A stretch of 61,911 bases of DNA from an uncultured Candidatus Saccharibacteria bacterium (lineage in GTDB: Bacteria; Patescibacteriota; Saccharimonadia; Saccharimonadales; CAZARM01): NCBI GenBank assembly GCA_964463635.1, contig CAYXCB010000003.1:1-61911 (forward strand), read 5' to 3'. Position numbers and translations under genes: made by a program. This document shows positions 1,530 through 59,465 of this stretch, piece by piece; positions within the stretch are counted from its first letter, which is position 1, and every line of letters begins with the position of its first letter. Below the pieces are notes generated by a model. It was not told where the DNA came from. It was given only the letters and a program-made list of their open reading frames with translations, and made no database searches.

Positions 1530-1907
1530 TTACATTGCATTGCCAAGACAGAGAATGTTTCCCGATGGGTCTTTAAACCAGGCCGCTTTCATTGGACCCA
1601 TAACATGGACGTCGCCCTCAAGAGCCACACCTGGCATATTCTCATAATGCTCGAAGGTCACACCCTTACCTTTTAAGTCCGCTACAACTGCTTCGATATC
1701 ATCAACCTCCCAAGAAGCAGCATTTGCCTGGTTAGTACCGGCGTATTCCGAAGGATAAACAAATATTTTGCTATTGCCGCTCTTGTACGTGATGCCACCG
1801 GGGTTTTCGTCTACTTTTTGCAGACCGACTGTGTTTTCGTAAAAATCTTTTGATGTGTTTAAGTCCTTTACTGCCACTATGGCATGGACATTGCTACTTC
1901 CCAACAT
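1530..1907 (-). CDS. VOC/glyoxalase/bleomycin-resistance family protein
   Basis: AVKDL..SKDFY, WEVDDIEA, AWFKDPSGNIL; start moved to ATG 1907, which follows a GGAGG RBS. Confidence 0.85.
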   Translation of the reverse strand: MLGSSNVHAIVAVKDLNTSKDFYENTVGLQKVDENPGGITYKSGNSKIFVYPSEYAGTNQANAASWEVDDIEAVVADLKGKGVTFEHYENMPGVALEGDVHVMGPMKAAWFKDPSGNILCLGNAM

Positions 1908-2079
1908 ACGCACCTCCTCATTTAGCTTACATACCCATAATAGCACTAAATAGCAGTTTGCAATTCCACGGCACACCCCCCTGAAAGTAACATTTCCAGG
2001 TCAGCCATCCATGTATAAATACCATGCTATAGCTTGATATTTATACATAAGTTAGGTTTACGAGGTTGTAAGAAAGGAT

Positions 2080-5684: not shown

Positions 5685-7064
5685 CTAACCCAATTTGGAT
5701 AGAAGCTCATCAATTTTCACACGTTCCTGCTTAGTGGTGTCGCGGTTGCGGATTGTTACCGTGTCGTCTTCCAGGGTGTCGAAGTCGATGACGACGCAGT
5801 ACGGAGTGCCGATTTCGTCCTGGCGGCGGTAACGTTTGCCAATATTTCCATTGTCATCAAATTCGACCATCATTTCCTTGCTTAGCATCTCGTAAACTTC
5901 CCTAGCCTTCTTGACAAGCCCAGGTTTGTTTTTCAGTAAAGGAAATACTGCCGCCTTGATTGGCGCAATACTTGGGTCAAGCTTCAGAACAGTACGGGTT
6001 TCACCGTTAATTTCTTCCTCGTGATAGGCATCCGTAAGCACAGCCAGGAACATGCGACCCACGCCAACCGAACTTTCAATAATATGGGGCAGGTATCGCT
6101 TCTCGGTCGCGGAATCAAAGTAGCTTAAATCTTTGCCACTACCCTTTTGATGTTGTGTCAGGTCGTAATCTCCACGGGCGTGCACACCCTCTAACTCCTT
6201 AAAGCCGAATGGATACTTATACTCGATATCGTAGGCTTCTTTGGCATAAAAAACTAAATTCTCGTGCTTCTGCCACCGCAGATTTTTTTCGTCAATACCA
6301 ATCGTCTTGTAGAAATCCCAACGATACTGACGCAGTTTTTCATACTCTTCCATCTCAACTTCAGGCTGCGTAAAGAATTGCATTTCCATTTGTTCGAGTT
6401 CGCGGGTACGGAAAATAAACTGGCGCGGGCTGATTTCGTTGCGGAAGGCCTTGCCAATTTGGGCAATACCGAATGGAACCTTAACACGTGTACTGTCGAC
6501 AACGTTCGGGAAGTTTACATAAATACCTTGGCAAGTTTCGCCGCGCAAATAACTAGGATTGTCGTCGAAGTCATCGCTGAAGTTACCGAGATTAGATTTA
6601 ACAAGCAGGTTAAAGTTTTTGACTTCACCCCACTCATTCTTGCCGCAATTAGGACATTTAATGTCGTCTCGATGTTTATCAAAAAGTTTGTTGAGCTGAT
6701 CTTCAGTCATTTTTTCATCAGCTTTTTCGCCTAGTTCTTCTAGAGCATGGTCAGCTCGAATGCGCTGGTGGCAGTTTTTACACTCAACCAGCGGATCGCT
6801 GAATCCGCTCACGTGCCCGCTGGCCTCCCATATGGCCGGATGCATGAAGATACCACTATCAAGCCCGACAATATCCTGACGCAGCTGAACCATGTATTTC
6901 CACCAGGCATTCTTAAGATTGTTAGCTAGCTCTACTCCATAAGGTCCGTAATCATAAACGCCTGCAAAGCCGCCATAGATTTCACTGCTCTGAAACACAA
7001 ACCCGCGGCGCTTGGCCAAAGAGACAATCTCCTCCATAGAAACAGCTGATTTTTCTTCGCTCAT
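5685..7064 (-). CDS. glyQS: Glycine--tRNA ligase (alpha2 type)
   Basis: KRRGFVFQSSEIYGG, LRGETCQG, GKAFRNEISP, IGKRYRRQDEIGTP. Confidence 0.97.
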   Translation of the reverse strand: MSEEKSAVSMEEIVSLAKRRGFVFQSSEIYGGFAGVYDYGPYGVELANNLKNAWWKYMVQLRQDIVGLDSGIFMHPAIWEASGHVSGFSDPLVECKNCHQRIRADHALEELGEKADEKMTEDQLNKLFDKHRDDIKCPNCGKNEWGEVKNFNLLVKSNLGNFSDDFDDNPSYLRGETCQGIYVNFPNVVDSTRVKVPFGIAQIGKAFRNEISPRQFIFRTRELEQMEMQFFTQPEVEMEEYEKLRQYRWDFYKTIGIDEKNLRWQKHENLVFYAKEAYDIEYKYPFGFKELEGVHARGDYDLTQHQKGSGKDLSYFDSATEKRYLPHIIESSVGVGRMFLAVLTDAYHEEEINGETRTVLKLDPSIAPIKAAVFPLLKNKPGLVKKAREVYEMLSKEMMVEFDDNGNIGKRYRRQDEIGTPYCVVIDFDTLEDDTVTIRNRDTTKQERVKIDELLSKLG

Positions 7065-7113
7065 ATTAGGGGTGATTATACCGCAAACTCCACCTCATAA
7101 CCACTCTTAAACT

Positions 7114-7151
7114 ATTCTAATTTTCCTTACTATAGTATACATTATTAGAAT
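7114..7151. repeat. 38-bp symmetric site A, ATTCTAAT-N6-TACTATAGTA-N6-ATTAGAAT, overlapping the start codon
   Basis: Outer 8-bp arms and central 10-bp palindrome read directly from the sequence. Confidence 0.85.
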
Positions 7152-7731
7152 GAGCAGCAAGGAAAATACTGAAAGAATAATAGATGCTTCCTTACGATTG
7201 CTGGTAACTAGTAGTGCAATTGGGGCTGGTTTGGTTTTGCCTAACCTGCTTGTGGCCTTGGATAAGCCGCTGGATAAGTACTTCAAGCATCTGGATCACC
7301 GAGAACGAGAACGCGAGGCTAAAAGAATCATCTACTATATGAAATCACGCGGCCTGATCGCTGGCGAATACGAGTTCGGTCTAAACATCACCAAGAAAGG
7401 TAGCGAGGCCTTAGCGAAGTTAGATTTTGAACATGTGGCCATTAACAGTCCGGCAGTCTGGGATAAAACTTGGCGTATCATTTTTTATGATATCCCAGAG
7501 GAACATAGGCCTGGACGTAATTCTCTAACGGCTAAGCTGCGTGCGATAGGTTTTTTTCAACTACAAAAGAGCGTCTGGATACATCCTTTTCCCTGCCGAG
7601 GTGTAATCGAAAAGATTACAACCAATTTTGAGATTGAAAAATTTGTCAGCTATGTGGAAACTCTGCATCTAGACAACGAGGCGATTCTAATCAAACGCTT
7701 CCAAAAACATTTACCCAATACTAAATTCTAA
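7150..7731 (+). CDS. PaaX-like / Cas2-like (ferredoxin-fold) protein with N-terminal wHTH-like region
   Basis: ITKKG, WDKTWRIIFYDIPE..R..R..L..IGFFQLQKSVWIHPF; no CRISPR array or other cas genes in the window. Confidence 0.8.
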   Translation: MSSKENTERIIDASLRLLVTSSAIGAGLVLPNLLVALDKPLDKYFKHLDHREREREAKRIIYYMKSRGLIAGEYEFGLNITKKGSEALAKLDFEHVAINSPAVWDKTWRIIFYDIPEEHRPGRNSLTAKLRAIGFFQLQKSVWIHPFPCRGVIEKITTNFEIEKFVSYVETLHLDNEAILIKRFQKHLPNTKF

Positions 7732-7762
7732 TAAATCATACTATAGTTTGATTTATTAGAAT
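7725..7762. repeat. 38-bp symmetric site B, ATTCTAAT-AAATCA-TACTATAGTT-TGATTT-ATTAGAAT, overlapping the stop codon
   Basis: Near-perfect palindrome (one mismatch); same arms, core and spacing as site A. Confidence 0.9.
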
Positions 7763-7774
7763 GGTTCTCTCGAT

Positions 7775-8245
7775 TTATGAATCAAAGTCTATCTGTCCGA
7801 TTTCAACTGGCATTAAGCCCGGATCATAAATTTCATTCCCATTAGAGGTTTGTACTCTTAAGGAATAGAGTCCTGCCCGAAACGCGTGGTCGACAATTGC
7901 TCCATAGACACGATCTGTGTGATTGCCACCTGGAAAGTGATGCATATCCGCTACTGCAAACCCAGTATGCTGAGCTATATTGCATAGCAAGTAAAACCTC
8001 TTGCTGAGTGAAATTTTGATTATTTGATTAGCTGTAAAGGTAATTGGCTCAGTGCCATCCCATGGTTTTAGCTCAGCCCTAAGCAATTCGTAAATAGGGT
8101 TGCTCTTATCATCTAGCGACAGCCTACCTATTAATCGAGGTGCTCGTAAGACTGTTCGCTCGCCAATCAGCTGAGGCTCAACAGCATCAAATAGTTCATC
8201 TTCGGGTGGCTGGGGCTCGGTTTCATTTGTTGACACAAGATACAA
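7775..8245 (-). CDS. Hypothetical protein
   Basis: 156-aa ORF filling the gap; no recognised motif. Confidence 0.55.
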   Translation of the reverse strand: MYLVSTNETEPQPPEDELFDAVEPQLIGERTVLRAPRLIGRLSLDDKSNPIYELLRAELKPWDGTEPITFTANQIIKISLSKRFYLLCNIAQHTGFAVADMHHFPGGNHTDRVYGAIVDHAFRAGLYSLRVQTSNGNEIYDPGLMPVEIGQIDFDS

Positions 8246-8276
8246 GATTACTCCTGTGGACCCAAAGATGCAACAG

Positions 8277-8969
8277 CTAATTATATAGGTAAAGCTTGGC
8301 CATAGACCGCACTAACTGGAGGGCTTCGACGGAAACTTTTTCTGAACCCTCGACTTTGCTCAGGATCGACGGCTGGCTAGCCGCACTCGACAGGCGCAGG
8401 AATTTAATTAGTTTGGCGTCAGAGCTGCCTTGCTCTCTTTCAGCAAAGGCCATATCGTCAAAACTAAACACATATGATTTATTGATCTCGAGTTTATGAC
8501 CGGATTTGTCGGTTGTGAGGTTTGGCATATGGCCAGTTAATTTTAACAGCTGCATATCAAACCACAGTTCAGTTAATTCCAGTGGCACATCCGCGTTATC
8601 CAACCCCTCCAATGCTGAAACTATCAGGTCAAAATACTCCCGCTCTACGACTTCTTCAGTTATTTTATTGATCTGCTTCAGCAGCTCATAGCCGAACATT
8701 GTCCGGTTGATGTCTTTCACAATGTCGCCATAGTGCGTCTTGAGGCGAGTTGAGATGAGTGTATGCAGATCCCGCTTGCCTGGAATATAGGTAATGTCGC
8801 CTACACTAAATAATTCTATGCCCCCGGCCATTTTGGATTTGGATTTGCGCACGCCTTTGGCTATAACCCTGACTTTGCCATGGTCAGGCGTCAGTAAAGT
8901 CACAATCCGGTCGGCTTCCTGATAATTAGTCCGCGCCAACACCAACCCAGTAGTGACGATAGTTTTCAT
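8277..8969 (-). CDS. recO: DNA repair protein RecO
   Basis: GLVL..TNYQEADRIVTLLT..HGKV..IAKGVRK.KSK. Confidence 0.95.
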   Translation of the reverse strand: MKTIVTTGLVLARTNYQEADRIVTLLTPDHGKVRVIAKGVRKSKSKMAGGIELFSVGDITYIPGKRDLHTLISTRLKTHYGDIVKDINRTMFGYELLKQINKITEEVVEREYFDLIVSALEGLDNADVPLELTELWFDMQLLKLTGHMPNLTTDKSGHKLEINKSYVFSFDDMAFAEREQGSSDAKLIKFLRLSSAASQPSILSKVEGSEKVSVEALQLVRSMAKLYLYN

Positions 8970-9346
8970 ACCGGCACAGTCTGCTGGATGTTTTCGATGA
9001 TTTCAACCAGCTTCTTGAGCTTTGTTGTTGGCTTATACAAATATGCCTGTACGTTTACTAGCGGCCATGCTACAGAATCTTTAAAAGTATGGGGCGGTAC
9101 ATGCGACAGGACTATGACTGGCAAATTCTGCCACTCATTATATGACCGAAGTTCGTACAAAAACTCCAGGCCGTTATGACCCGCCAGCTGCAGTTCCAGA
9201 ATAATTAAATCCGGCGTTTGCTTGTCGGATGCTTCAATACCTTTTTGGCCCGAAGTTCGCCAAGTGACTTTATGGCCAGCCTGCCGCAGGACACTACTGT
9301 AGGTTTTAGCTAACATCCGGTCAGGCTCAATTAATAGTATCCGCAT
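8966..9346 (-). CDS. Single-domain response regulator; phosphoacceptor Asp replaced by Glu
   Basis: RILLIEPD, PDLIILELQL..HNGLEFL, VIVLS, YLYKP. Confidence 0.85.
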   Translation of the reverse strand: MRILLIEPDRMLAKTYSSVLRQAGHKVTWRTSGQKGIEASDKQTPDLIILELQLAGHNGLEFLYELRSYNEWQNLPVIVLSHVPPHTFKDSVAWPLVNVQAYLYKPTTKLKKLVEIIENIQQTVPV

Positions 9347-58102: not shown

Positions 58103-58129
58103 AGTTTCCAAGAACCGTCCTTGGAAACT
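58103..58129. repeat. REP-like hairpin, type B copy 1
   Basis: AGTTTCCAAG-AACCGTC-CTTGGAAACT. Confidence 0.9.
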
Positions 58130-58135
58130 CTTCGC

Positions 58136-58747
58136 TTAGACGTTGGCAAGCTCGAGTTTTAATTCTTTGAGTATTTGTTTGTGGCCTTCGAAATCCTTTA
58201 AGAAGCGGCTGTAGTCTTCCGAGTTAGAAAACAGCTGCAATATAAGTCCGGGTCTTACCCACTCTGCTGTTTTTGCGCCTAGATAATAGGGTAGGCTGGA
58301 AAACTCCCAAGTGGCGTAATTTTCAGGGTTTAGATGTATGTATCGCGATATATGATGTAGATAGTCGTCACGAGTAATACGCGAGGCTTTAAAACGATCT
58401 TGAAACAGAGGTCCGATACGCTTGTATTTCTTGTTAAAATAAGTGCTGTAGGCAGTACCCACCCCTCTTAACAATCTGGTCATAGCTTCCGGATCGTGCT
58501 GGTAGATGAGCAAGTGCCAGTGGTTCGACATAAGGCAGAATGCCAAAAGTTCAACCCTTTCATGCAGCCATTCATAATTACGCCCCTTTAGATCAGCAGA
58601 TGGAGAGTCGTTTAAATAACGCTTAAACAAGTTTAAAAACACGCTATAGTCTTCCGTATCCAAAAATACTGACTGCTTGTTCACGCCACGATTATAGAGG
58701 TGATAATAACCTTCGGTGTATTCTTTAATCCTATTACGGCTGGCCAT
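58136..58747 (-). CDS. REP-associated tyrosine transposase (RAYT/Y1 HUH), second paralog
   Basis: YHLYNRGVN, FCLMSNHWH, G.LFQ.RF, RYIHLNP. Confidence 0.92.
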   Translation of the reverse strand: MASRNRIKEYTEGYYHLYNRGVNKQSVFLDTEDYSVFLNLFKRYLNDSPSADLKGRNYEWLHERVELLAFCLMSNHWHLLIYQHDPEAMTRLLRGVGTAYSTYFNKKYKRIGPLFQDRFKASRITRDDYLHHISRYIHLNPENYATWEFSSLPYYLGAKTAEWVRPGLILQLFSNSEDYSRFLKDFEGHKQILKELKLELANV

Positions 58748-58774: not shown

Positions 58775-58799
58775 ATTTCCAAGGACGGTTCTTGGAAAT
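58775..58799. repeat. REP-like hairpin, type B copy 2 (inverted relative to copy 1)
   Basis: ATTTCCAAG-GACGGTT-CTTGGAAAT. Confidence 0.9.
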
Positions 58800-58822: not shown

Positions 58823-59392
58823 TTAGTTGAAAGTAAGTGTTTCAAATGATGGCCTAAAATATTCCTGCTCCACTGTGGCGTACTCAGCGGCTGTTGCTTG
58901 GGCAGCTAAATAGAAGGCTGTGTCGTCGTCTTTCATGATTATTAGTAGCCTCTGTTTGATTATTTCTCCAGTTGTGCCTTTGTATTCAAAGATTACTTCG
59001 GCTGCTGTTCGGCCGGCCTGTTCTAAACGGCGCACGCTGACCTGACGATAGTCTGGAAAACGCTGAGGGAAAGCTTTGCCGGCGTTAGACAATATCAATT
59101 GGATCGGTTCAATCCCGGCCAGCGCCGCTGCCTGCCTAATGTCCTCTTCGTAGCGCAACGTGATCAGAAACTGATCTTTGACCCCTTGACCTGGGCTGCC
59201 TCTAAATATTATATGGTAAGCCGTGTCATCATCTGTAAGTTGCTCGGCTTTTATAGTCCCTTTGTAGCTAAACTTAGTTTGAGTCTCAGCATGGTTGAAT
59301 GTCTCTAGAGGTTCTGGGAGCAACAGCCCATAACCAAGGCCGGTAGCAACACCCAGGGACAACGCTAACAAAAGCCACAACCATCGTTTCAT
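58823..59392 (-). CDS. Exported PsbP-like hypothetical protein
   Basis: N-terminal TM/signal, FSY, C-terminal F.PSFETLTF. Confidence 0.6.
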   Translation of the reverse strand: MKRWLWLLLALSLGVATGLGYGLLLPEPLETFNHAETQTKFSYKGTIKAEQLTDDDTAYHIIFRGSPGQGVKDQFLITLRYEEDIRQAAALAGIEPIQLILSNAGKAFPQRFPDYRQVSVRRLEQAGRTAAEVIFEYKGTTGEIIKQRLLIIMKDDDTAFYLAAQATAAEYATVEQEYFRPSFETLTFN

Positions 59393-59438: not shown

Positions 59439-59465
59439 TATTTCCAAGGACGGTTCTTGGAAATA
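59439..59465. repeat. REP-like hairpin, type B copy 3 (direct to copy 2)
   Basis: TATTTCCAAG-GACGGTT-CTTGGAAATA. Confidence 0.9.

Follow-up and report, generated by a model that had tools for sequence, protein, structure and literature searches.

We found that a gene at 7150–7731 (plus strand) of a 61,911-nucleotide (nt) stretch of DNA from an uncultured Candidatus Saccharibacteria bacterium (assembly GCA_964463635.1, contig CAYXCB010000003.1, positions 1–61,911; this whole stretch is called the window below) was bracketed by two copies of a 38-bp tripartite palindrome, site A on its start codon and site B on its stop codon. The gene encodes a protein of 193 amino acids (aa) with an N-terminal winged-helix region (approximately aa 1–95) followed by a PaaX_M/Cas2-like domain (aa 102–174, nt 7453–7671). 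Comparison of homologous loci indicated that this site-gene-site unit is the standard format of the protein family throughout Patescibacteria. The reading that we favor, with a probability that we put only slightly above even, is that of an autoregulated two-operator cassette, in which an autorepressed mini-PaaX has one operator at its promoter and a second operator, which may also act as a hairpin, at its 3' end.

Read directly from the sequence of 6800–8100, both sites fitted the pattern ATTCTAAT-N6-TACTATAGTW-N6-ATTAGAAT. Site A (7114–7151) was ATTCTAAT-TTTCCT-TACTATAGTA-TACATT-ATTAGAAT, with 8-bp arms, a 10-bp core and unpaired 6-nt spacers, and site B (7725–7762) was ATTCTAAT-AAATCA-TACTATAGTT-TGATTT-ATTAGAAT, with the arms and core of site A and self-complementary spacers. 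The A and T of the ATG (7150–7152) were the last two bases of site A, the TAA stop codon (7729–7731) lay inside the left arm of site B, and 7150–7731 was the sole long open reading frame (ORF) between the sites. All of these details, from the arms, core and N6 spacing to the shared start and stop codons, had been claimed in an original prediction made from the letters of the window alone, and the sequence reading and a pattern search confirmed every one of them. When up to three mismatches were allowed, the pattern matched sites A and B only in the window, each on both strands (chance expectation 0.00 from 100 shuffles). The same two sites were the only matches in the whole genome (787,508 bases in 46 contigs, 97% complete), where a reversed control pattern gave 0 matches and a looser search with 5 substitutions allowed recovered no additional site of this type. 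Site B was a near-perfect 38-bp palindrome, its 19-nt arms being 95% complementary, with a predicted RNA hairpin of −15.2 kcal/mol (z −4.7) on the plus strand and −14.9 kcal/mol on the minus strand. Pairing in site A was limited to the arms and core (74% complementary, −7.3 kcal/mol), which agreed with the unpaired spacers noted in the original prediction.

Profile and fold searches gave a consistent picture of the protein. PF20803 (PaaX_M, 'PaaX central Cas2-like domain') was the only Pfam family above threshold, matching aa 102–174 with an E value of 8.4e-20 and 71.1 bits against a cut-off of 24; besides it there were a sub-threshold Cas2 match (PF09827, 13.1 bits against a cut-off of 23.8) and a weak winged helix-turn-helix (wHTH) match. 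Among the NCBIfam models, the Cas2 family TIGR01573 gave 18.9 bits (cut-off 24.5, E 0.0014), and the PaaX equivalog TIGR02277 gave 22.3 bits (cut-off 264.55) and matched aa 100–169 only. Because both scores fell under their cut-offs, the protein is neither an orthologous PaaX nor a Cas2. PADLOC Cas2 models also matched weakly (E 3.6e-4). There was no Pfam match to the PaaX_C effector-binding domain, the protein stopping at aa 193, nor any Pfam match in the 193-aa protein to PF01797, an HUH motif or a known transposase or recombinase. The AlphaFold2 model, built from a 28-sequence alignment, had a mean predicted local distance difference test score of 83, with the Cas2-like half above 90. A Foldseek search of the PDB with this model ranked Escherichia coli W PaaX (8a39) first, with an E value of 9.8e-4 and a probability of 1.00, and Mycobacterium tuberculosis Rv0674 second; it also placed many Cas2 chains on the C-terminal domain, several at probabilities of 0.9–0.99, and DtxR/CggR-type winged helices on the N-terminal part. 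Alignment of the family profile with E. coli K-12 PaaX by hhalign, for which the PaaX sequence was taken from its annotated record, gave a probability of 88% (E 2.8e-6) over PaaX residues 52–172. A PDB sequence search with the single protein returned nothing, and the profile search returned weak Cas2 and DtxR-type wHTH matches only, the best being Sulfolobus Cas2 3exc, with which the family had the D, R, LG and Q.S residues in common. Five residues (D114, P116, R123, Q139 and S141) were invariant in the 28-sequence alignment. By these comparisons the domain is PaaX-like in its context and more Cas2-like in its signature residues. The predicted homodimer of two copies scored 0.15 and 0.19 against a mark of 0.42 and was counted neither way.

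Pfam, the fold search and hhalign thus agreed on the wHTH plus Cas2-like composition originally proposed for the protein. Likewise, no match to cas1 (PF01867) was found in the 97%-complete genome, as had been stated for the window, with 7 of 14 control genomes positive in the same search; the search did not extend to CRISPR arrays. No relative of the protein turned up in phage records, in plasmid records or among IMG/VR viral contigs.

The genome under study (G000) encodes three further paralogs, on contigs C2, C9 and C10, which were 31–37% identical to the window protein. Inspection of the flanks showed that all four paralogs were bracketed, each by its own pair of sites of 36–40 bp. These sites had a common build (an arm, a short spacer, an 8–12-bp palindromic core, a spacer and the inverted arm) and differed in sequence from gene to gene: TATCAT..GACGATCGTC..ATGATA for the C10 paralog, CCATCA..GTCCGATCGGAC..TGATGG for the C2 paralog, and GTATAAATA..GCTATAGC..TATTTATAC for the C9 paralog, whose downstream copy was the exact reverse complement of the upstream copy over 39 nt. 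Bracketing was scored as the best ungapped segment common to the 5' and 3' flanks, with a mark of 15. For the 574 ORFs of at least 150 aa in G000, which served as the null, the median score was 8.5, the 95th percentile 11 and the 99th percentile 23.5; only 17 of them reached 15. The four paralogs ranked 2, 3, 6 and 15, and the other high scorers were six ORFs related to REP-associated tyrosine transposases (RAYTs; REP, repetitive extragenic palindrome) and a remainder explained by duplicated flanking genes.

The bracket was equally regular outside this genome. Relatives of the protein were present in 10 of 41 related genomes, at 19 places, and 18 of these places scored at least 15; the 19th (L008) had three GCGATCGC-cored sites when examined by eye. 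Across the phylum, PF20803 occurred in 76 of 301 sampled genomes, with 1–12 copies each. We applied the bracket test to 37 phylum-wide loci (30 from the PF20803 genome search and 7 from a genome-contig search), 36 of which could be scored, L069 being left out for too short a flank. A score of at least 15 was reached by 25 of the 36 loci versus 3 of 144 non-cognate pairings, in which the upstream flank of one locus was set against the downstream flank of another. Re-inspection of the 11 low-scoring loci and of L052 revealed one pair further out, three diverged pairs and, in most of the others, an upstream palindrome only. Among the closest metagenome relatives (39–59% identity), 14 of 42 were inspected: all 13 with upstream sequence had a site abutting the ATG, and at least 13 of the 14 had one on or just past the stop codon, with arms and cores that differed each time. 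The family itself is large. A search of 1.84 billion protein cluster representatives (50% clustering) yielded 2,896 representatives at E ≤1e-3 and 1,329 at E ≤1e-10, nearly all of 170–220 aa and annotated at source as hypothetical, 'PaaX' or 'Cas2'.

The gene between two cognate palindromes that had been proposed from one locus is therefore real and general, since every paralog and almost every homolog had its own pair; flanking palindromes in homologs had been suggested as a check on the proposal. A literature search, conducted mostly without subscription papers and without supplements, found no description of the architecture or of the family's sites, as the original prediction had supposed.

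The protein very probably recognizes these sites. Sites A and B each have 8-bp inverted arms with N22 between them, 38 bp in total, which sets the arms approximately three helical turns apart. A review gives the E. coli PaaX operator as TGATTC-N27-GAATCA, with 6-bp inverted arms (PMC9493321). Because short inverted arms approximately three helical turns apart and an overall length of 38–39 bp are features of both, we regard the sites as putative PaaX-type operators for a symmetric dimer. Site similarity also tracked the proteins: mean site identity was 0.41 at less than 30% protein identity, 0.61 at 50–70% and 0.78 at more than 70%, and at 57% protein identity sites could already be nearly unrelated. 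The privacy of the sites to their genes, this covariation and the PaaX operator geometry together fit recognition by a protein better than a plain terminator, which had been argued before from the unpaired spacers of site A.

Regulation of the gene through its upstream site is probable. A strict palindrome-centre finder recovered site pairs in 39 of 98 loci, because many contigs end early and many cores are imperfect; the statistics on site position, neighbor orientation and covariation were calculated on 35 loci after three near-duplicates (L076, L084 and L102) and a false downstream call (L082) had been dropped; L080, also marked for removal, had yielded no pair. The median distance was 26 nt from the centre of the upstream site to the start codon and 27 nt from the stop codon to the centre of the downstream site (n = 35). 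Upstream sites of close relatives contained a −10-like hexamer 6–9 nt before the ATG, between the core and the gene-proximal arm, which was TATAAT in L077, L083, L085 and L087, TAGAAT in L079 and L086, and TAAACT in L075. The second base of this hexamer was altered in the downstream copies of close relatives (TCTAAT, TGGAAT), and in L083 the upstream and downstream sites differed, within the palindrome, at this base only. Over the 35 loci, TAnnnT was present in 27 upstream proximal halves versus 19 upstream distal, 15 downstream outward and 16 downstream inward halves. The equivalent position in the window was occupied by the candidate −10 hexamer TACATT (7138–7143, plus strand), 6 nt before the ATG, from which we infer a −10 element with a leaderless or near-leaderless mRNA. 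The hexamer in the upstream sites, its loss downstream and the TAnnnT counts indicate that a promoter is embedded in the upstream site, that the mRNA is leaderless or nearly so, and that the downstream copy is promoter-dead. The original prediction had left it open whether the protein would mobilize or regulate itself; since the upstream site holds a −10-like box and the downstream site does not, regulation is the better supported, and cutting or mobilization finds indirect support only, in solo copies and a truB insert of other paralog types.

In the mechanism that we propose, the mini-PaaX, which joins a winged-helix DNA-binding domain to a Cas2-like one and lacks the C-terminal effector domain that true PaaX has, would bind its own private 38-bp tripartite palindrome as a symmetric dimer. 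The two winged helices would read the 8-bp arms, approximately 30 bp apart, and the Cas2-like dimer would lie over the palindromic core. Site A would overlap the −10 region and the start of the leaderless or near-leaderless transcript, and binding there would shut off transcription of the gene, much as true PaaX, by getting in the way of RNA polymerase, represses Px, the promoter of its own gene (PMC9493321). Site B, on the stop codon between two convergent genes, would be a promoter-dead and more symmetric copy that serves as a second operator, either as a roadblock or as a loop partner, and in RNA form it may fold into a hairpin at the 3' ends of the two convergent transcripts.

Comparison of the 35 loci bore on this second site as well. 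The downstream site was more symmetric than the upstream site in 16 loci, less symmetric in 9 and equal in 10. Its neighbor was convergent in 21 of 31 loci, which speaks against control of a co-directional downstream gene as its main function. The position would instead fit a second operator, a roadblock or a loop partner, plus a bidirectional hairpin. Directly behind the downstream site of the C9 paralog (L005; G000:C9:6421–6500) there is a TGATAGAAT-type extended −10, together with the beginning of a gene in the same orientation, which we take to resemble yajQ; at this locus the 3' site could also serve that gene as an operator. Site B of the window repeats ATTAGAATG and so ends in ATG too, opening a 22-codon frame (7761–7829, plus strand) antisense to the next ORF; this frame is probably a by-product of site duplication. 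A low-depth contig assembled in a run from the same permafrost sample carried a strain variant with A>T at 7738, a position in the left-hand spacer of site B, and with no compensating change.

Several points weigh against an autorepressed two-operator cassette. As a proposed −10, TACATT is weak, and a consensus scan of 6950–7950 found neither a full sigma-70 −35/−10 promoter nor an intrinsic terminator. The covariation of sites and proteins was modest, with a Spearman coefficient of 0.165 that was reached by 21 of 2000 permutations, a count that overstates the signal in phylogenetically related sequences; covariation of the palindromes with the wHTH had been suggested as a check, and site identity was here compared with whole-protein identity. 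In approximately one quarter of the phylum-wide loci, the upstream site was without a clear downstream counterpart, and the role assigned to site B is hypothetical. E. coli PaaX has different residues at the family-invariant positions D114, R123 and Q139 in the hhalign alignment, and a Cas2 signature that is kept in this family but lost in a repressor hints at an activity beyond dimerization. Several solo copies of the sites of other paralogs, described below, were found between convergent 3' ends or inside truB, which are odd places for operators. Finally, a repressor with only two genomic sites, both flanking its own gene, has no evident output, and autoregulation alone therefore does not explain why the gene exists.

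The surroundings of the cassette were variable. The gene is on the strand opposite to def, glyS, recO, the response-regulator gene and orf156 around it, as originally noted, and there were no paa genes among its neighbors def, glyS, orf156 and recO, a genome-wide paa search not having been made. Homologous loci had no conserved neighbors and no partner gene; neither the 18 other genome loci nor the genome-contig loci adjoined glyS, recO or orf156. The run of response-regulator gene, recO and glyS was kept in 11 relatives, with recO–glyS gaps of 42 nt to approximately 1.4 kb, and these gaps contained no relative of the cassette protein. Empty recO–glyS loci with one site or none had been suggested as something to look for: cassette-free junctions were thus present in all 11 relatives, and the eight gaps that were inspected contained other small ORFs or nothing, with no solo site of this architecture. 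Two metagenome contigs, L081 with a cassette beside recO and L082 with one beside glyS, encoded proteins 50–51% identical to that of the window, and their flanking genes were 51–57% identical to those of the window. Because these cassettes occupy the same recO/glyS slot, part of the lineage may have received the cassette by vertical descent, with a complete change of its sites. Synteny and a lack of flanking palindromes in homologs had both been named as grounds for abandoning the original proposal; synteny was seen in L081 and L082, and the homologs did carry palindromes.

Between the cassette and recO lies the putative gene orf156 (7775–8245, minus strand; 156 aa), which had no Pfam, NCBIfam or PADLOC match and was absent from the relatives' recO–glyS gaps examined and from all other cassette loci; the strain-variant contig mentioned above showed several differences in it (7787–8006). 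A search of sequencing runs for this stretch returned three DNA runs of one permafrost study, with no RNA run listed. Contigs of these runs gave low depth when aligned to 6000–9000. A contig joint that skipped from 6800 to 8521 was considered as an excision and rejected, as the contig behind it was a diverged one (8 differences in 44 letters, side 32), which we took to be from another organism.

Solo copies of the sites were present in G000 for the three other paralog types (C10-type, 1; C9-type, 2; C2-type, 4–6) and for the window's own type were 0 genome-wide; a scan for solo sites had been suggested in the original prediction, and such sites exist for genes other than the one it described. 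One C9-type copy lies in the window itself (2013–2046), as GTATAAATA-CCAT-GCTATAGC-TTGA-TATTTATAC, in an intergenic region upstream of a 148-aa ORF (1530–1976, minus strand), and the other is at C29:1337. The C2-type copies at C6:18201 and C16:13848, on different contigs, were identical over 36 nt and shared an asymmetry at their end bases; further C2-type copies are at C25:4780 and C44:1106, with weaker ones at C44:997 and C2:16359. Some solo copies were in promoter-like positions: upstream of a gdh-like gene, upstream of a secE-nusG run, and in the gap that separates rpmB from a protease gene. An orphan site likewise preceded an atp operon. Others followed recX, an oxidoreductase gene and a nuclease gene, at places where 3' ends converge.

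The C10-type solo copy (C17:4618) was inside the ORF of truB (G000:C17:3971–4735, minus strand; L117:572–1336), where a 15-aa in-frame insert (aa 29–43) consisted of the tripartite site. A second in-frame insert of 17 aa in the same gene (aa 106–122) contained a RAYT-type REP hairpin. Both inserts were unique to this genome, being absent from seven aligned orthologs; residues 1–70 of the query truB were matched by 55 codons only in the nearest relative, G001, which accordingly does not have the first insert. In-frame palindromic elements of a similar kind are described for Rickettsia. The truB insert is the strongest sign in these sequences that the palindromes can be copied to new places. Exact extra copies of sites were also found in other genomes (four in G129, three in G325 and four in G040), whereas G225 had only the two bracket copies. 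Three of the G040 copies stand in a row on one contig (L135, G040:C23:4800–8000, at 207–240, 880–913 and 1688–1721). The first two bracket the PaaX-like gene, and the third lies on the start codon of a convergent 207-aa neighbor, which is thereby bracketed by the middle and third sites.

The analogy with RAYT/REP units drawn in the original prediction was apt, for the same genome has true RAYT-like genes bracketed by REP hairpins. Five such genes with an IS200-type Y1 transposase were found in G000, each flanked by its own hairpins. One is in the window (58136–58747, minus strand; Pfam Y1_Tnp, PF01797, E 2.1e-9), next to an ORF with no family (58823–59392). Hairpins of the type TTTCCAAG-N7-CTTGGAAA separate and flank these two ORFs (58105–58127, 58776–58798 and 59441–59463), and this type had 19 copies genome-wide. 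The four other RAYT-like genes, with their own hairpins, are on other contigs.

These findings bear on the strongest alternative, that the cassette is a selfish or domesticated module resembling a REPtron or a minimal insertion sequence. The Cas2-like domain would be a metal-dependent nuclease, placed on the core by the winged helices, that nicks or cuts the sites; the 36–40-bp palindromes, and perhaps the cassette, would be duplicated or mobilized. The bracketing sites would then mark the two termini of the element, the left one carrying the promoter as is the case in many insertion sequences, and autoregulation would be a by-product of end binding. We judge this unlikely, though well short of negligible. 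It would account for an architecture equal to that of the five RAYT-like genes, for the identical C2-type copies, for the C10-type copy and REP hairpin within truB, for the exact extra copies in G129, G325 and G040, and for solo sites that, like REPs, lie between convergent genes. The invariant D...R...Q.S signature lost in E. coli PaaX, the patchy distribution (10 of 41 relatives and 76 of 301 phylum genomes) with 1–12 copies, and the absence of the cassette from the recO–glyS junction in 11 relatives point in the same direction. However, the site type of the window had no solo copy, and the paralogs within the genome were only 31–37% identical, with no near-identical cassettes and thus nothing to suggest that the gene transposed recently. 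Neither the truB insert nor the cassette ends showed a target-site duplication, and no empty-site/filled-site pair was found among the relatives searched. The protein matched no known transposase, recombinase or HUH motif, and to our knowledge Cas2 alone has never been shown to transpose DNA. Nor did phage records, plasmid records or viral contigs give a match, the L081 and L082 cassettes (approximately 50% identity) in one slot fit vertical descent, and selection for optimal binding, rather than copying, could account for identity among perfect palindromes.

An interpretation restricted to binding is supported by the PaaX ancestry and operator geometry, by promoter-proximal solo sites, and by the lack of near-identical cassettes, of a solo site of the window's type and of mobile-element matches; one that goes beyond binding is suggested by the REPtron- or insertion sequence-like bracket, the truB insert, the identical solo copies, the sites at convergent 3' ends and the invariant Cas2 signature. 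In its widest form the latter would mean that the REP/RAYT lifestyle was invented independently a second time, by the wHTH-Cas2-like proteins of Patescibacteria, which we hold to be rather improbable. A Cas2-fold site-specific nuclease would in that case recognize a private, double-stranded tripartite palindrome, maintain its gene between two copies of it and seed more copies in the genome, even in frame into housekeeping genes, and would thereby spread operators and pieces of promoter.

The conserved Cas2 catalytic-type Asp and Q.S motif could also be those of a tightly self-repressed, Cas2/VapD-like toxin or defense nuclease (RNase or DNase), whose wHTH would act as an antitoxin-style autorepressor and whose sites would insulate it from outside transcription. 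The weak matches to Cas2 models (TIGR01573 and PADLOC), the single-gene cassette with an operator over its own start, and the high number of divergent paralogs in a genome, a common trait of toxin and defense genes, would all agree with such a function. We nevertheless consider it quite improbable: all Cas2 scores were under the curated cut-offs (13.1 against 23.8 and 18.9 against 24.5 bits), there was no partner gene or conserved neighbor, and PADLOC gave weak Cas2 and JukB matches only and no other system. Moreover, a downstream site cannot insulate sense expression, and the solo sites near other genes would be left unexplained. That the palindromes are ordinary features, a bidirectional terminator hairpin plus an upstream repeat that is structural or arose by chance, neither of them specifically linked to the protein, would suit the stable hairpin of site B on both strands between convergent genes but is very hard to credit, given that site A folds poorly, that there is no U-tract or GC-rich stem, that the arms and core are exactly common to both sites and found nowhere else in the genome, and that pairing was gene-specific in 25 of 36 loci versus 3 of 144 controls.

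Patescibacteria, the candidate phyla radiation, have tiny genomes with few recognizable regulators. The present family has 2,896 representatives and occurred in 76 of the 301 genomes sampled, approximately one in four, at up to 12 copies per genome; it may therefore count among the principal groups of sequence-specific DNA-binding proteins in the phylum. Since each gene carries two copies of its own site, the cognate sites can be read straight from the genome, and the family would thus offer a ready-made catalogue of putative orthogonal protein-operator pairs and a natural experiment in the co-evolution of specificity. If the Cas2-like domain acts catalytically on the sites, the cassettes would represent REP-like elements of a new kind and could be evolutionarily related to the machinery of CRISPR adaptation. 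If they were an independent counterpart of REP/RAYT, they would be the first DNA-mobilizing or self-propagating system based on a stand-alone Cas2 fold, which would bear on the origin of CRISPR Cas2.

Compared with known systems, the cassette differs from the type II toxin-antitoxin modules of the VapD-like kind in that it has no adjacent partner and is a single-gene unit whose sites abut the start and stop codons and whose neighbors vary. With Cas2/VapD-type nucleases it shares the ferredoxin-like fold, the β1 Asp and the Q.S motif, but the protein falls under every curated Cas2 cut-off, the domain is fused to a wHTH, and no cas1 was found in the genome. There are insertion sequences whose transposase binds both ends of the element and represses its promoter in the left end. 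The cassette similarly has the same predicted protein-binding sequence at both ends of a one-gene unit, with a putative promoter in the upstream end only; it differs from insertion sequences in having no known transposase fold, no multiple identical copies and no target duplication, and in that each of its ends is a full palindrome. Unlike RAYTs, the cassette protein has no HUH/Y1 (IS200-like) transposase domain, its sites are 36–40-bp tripartite palindromes of a double-strand type rather than simple hairpins of 20–25 nt, and each site type occurs in 2–7 copies rather than tens to hundreds, the site of the window being without a solo copy. REPtrons are described as having private repeat families for each paralog and as mostly inherited vertically, and they resemble the cassettes in placing a single-copy gene between two copies of the palindrome that is its presumed target, with extra intergenic copies, here those of the other paralog types, often between convergent genes (PMC8266576, PMC6006769, PMC3337134). 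PaaX of E. coli (PDB 8a39; TIGR02277; COG3327) is longer, at 316 aa with a PaaX_C effector domain against 193 aa without one, and is the phenylacetyl-CoA-responsive repressor of the paa catabolon, whereas the cassette has no paa genes nearby. The cassette protein keeps the Cas2 D, R and Q.S residues that E. coli PaaX lost, and its sites add a palindromic core, a second putative operator on the stop codon and a private sequence for each paralog. PaaX nevertheless was the best fold match, with the same order of an N-terminal winged helix and a Cas2-like central domain (PF20803), and its operator, as given in the review cited above, likewise has short inverted arms approximately three helical turns apart (TGATTC-N27-GAATCA, against ATTCTAAT-N22-ATTAGAAT in the cassette).

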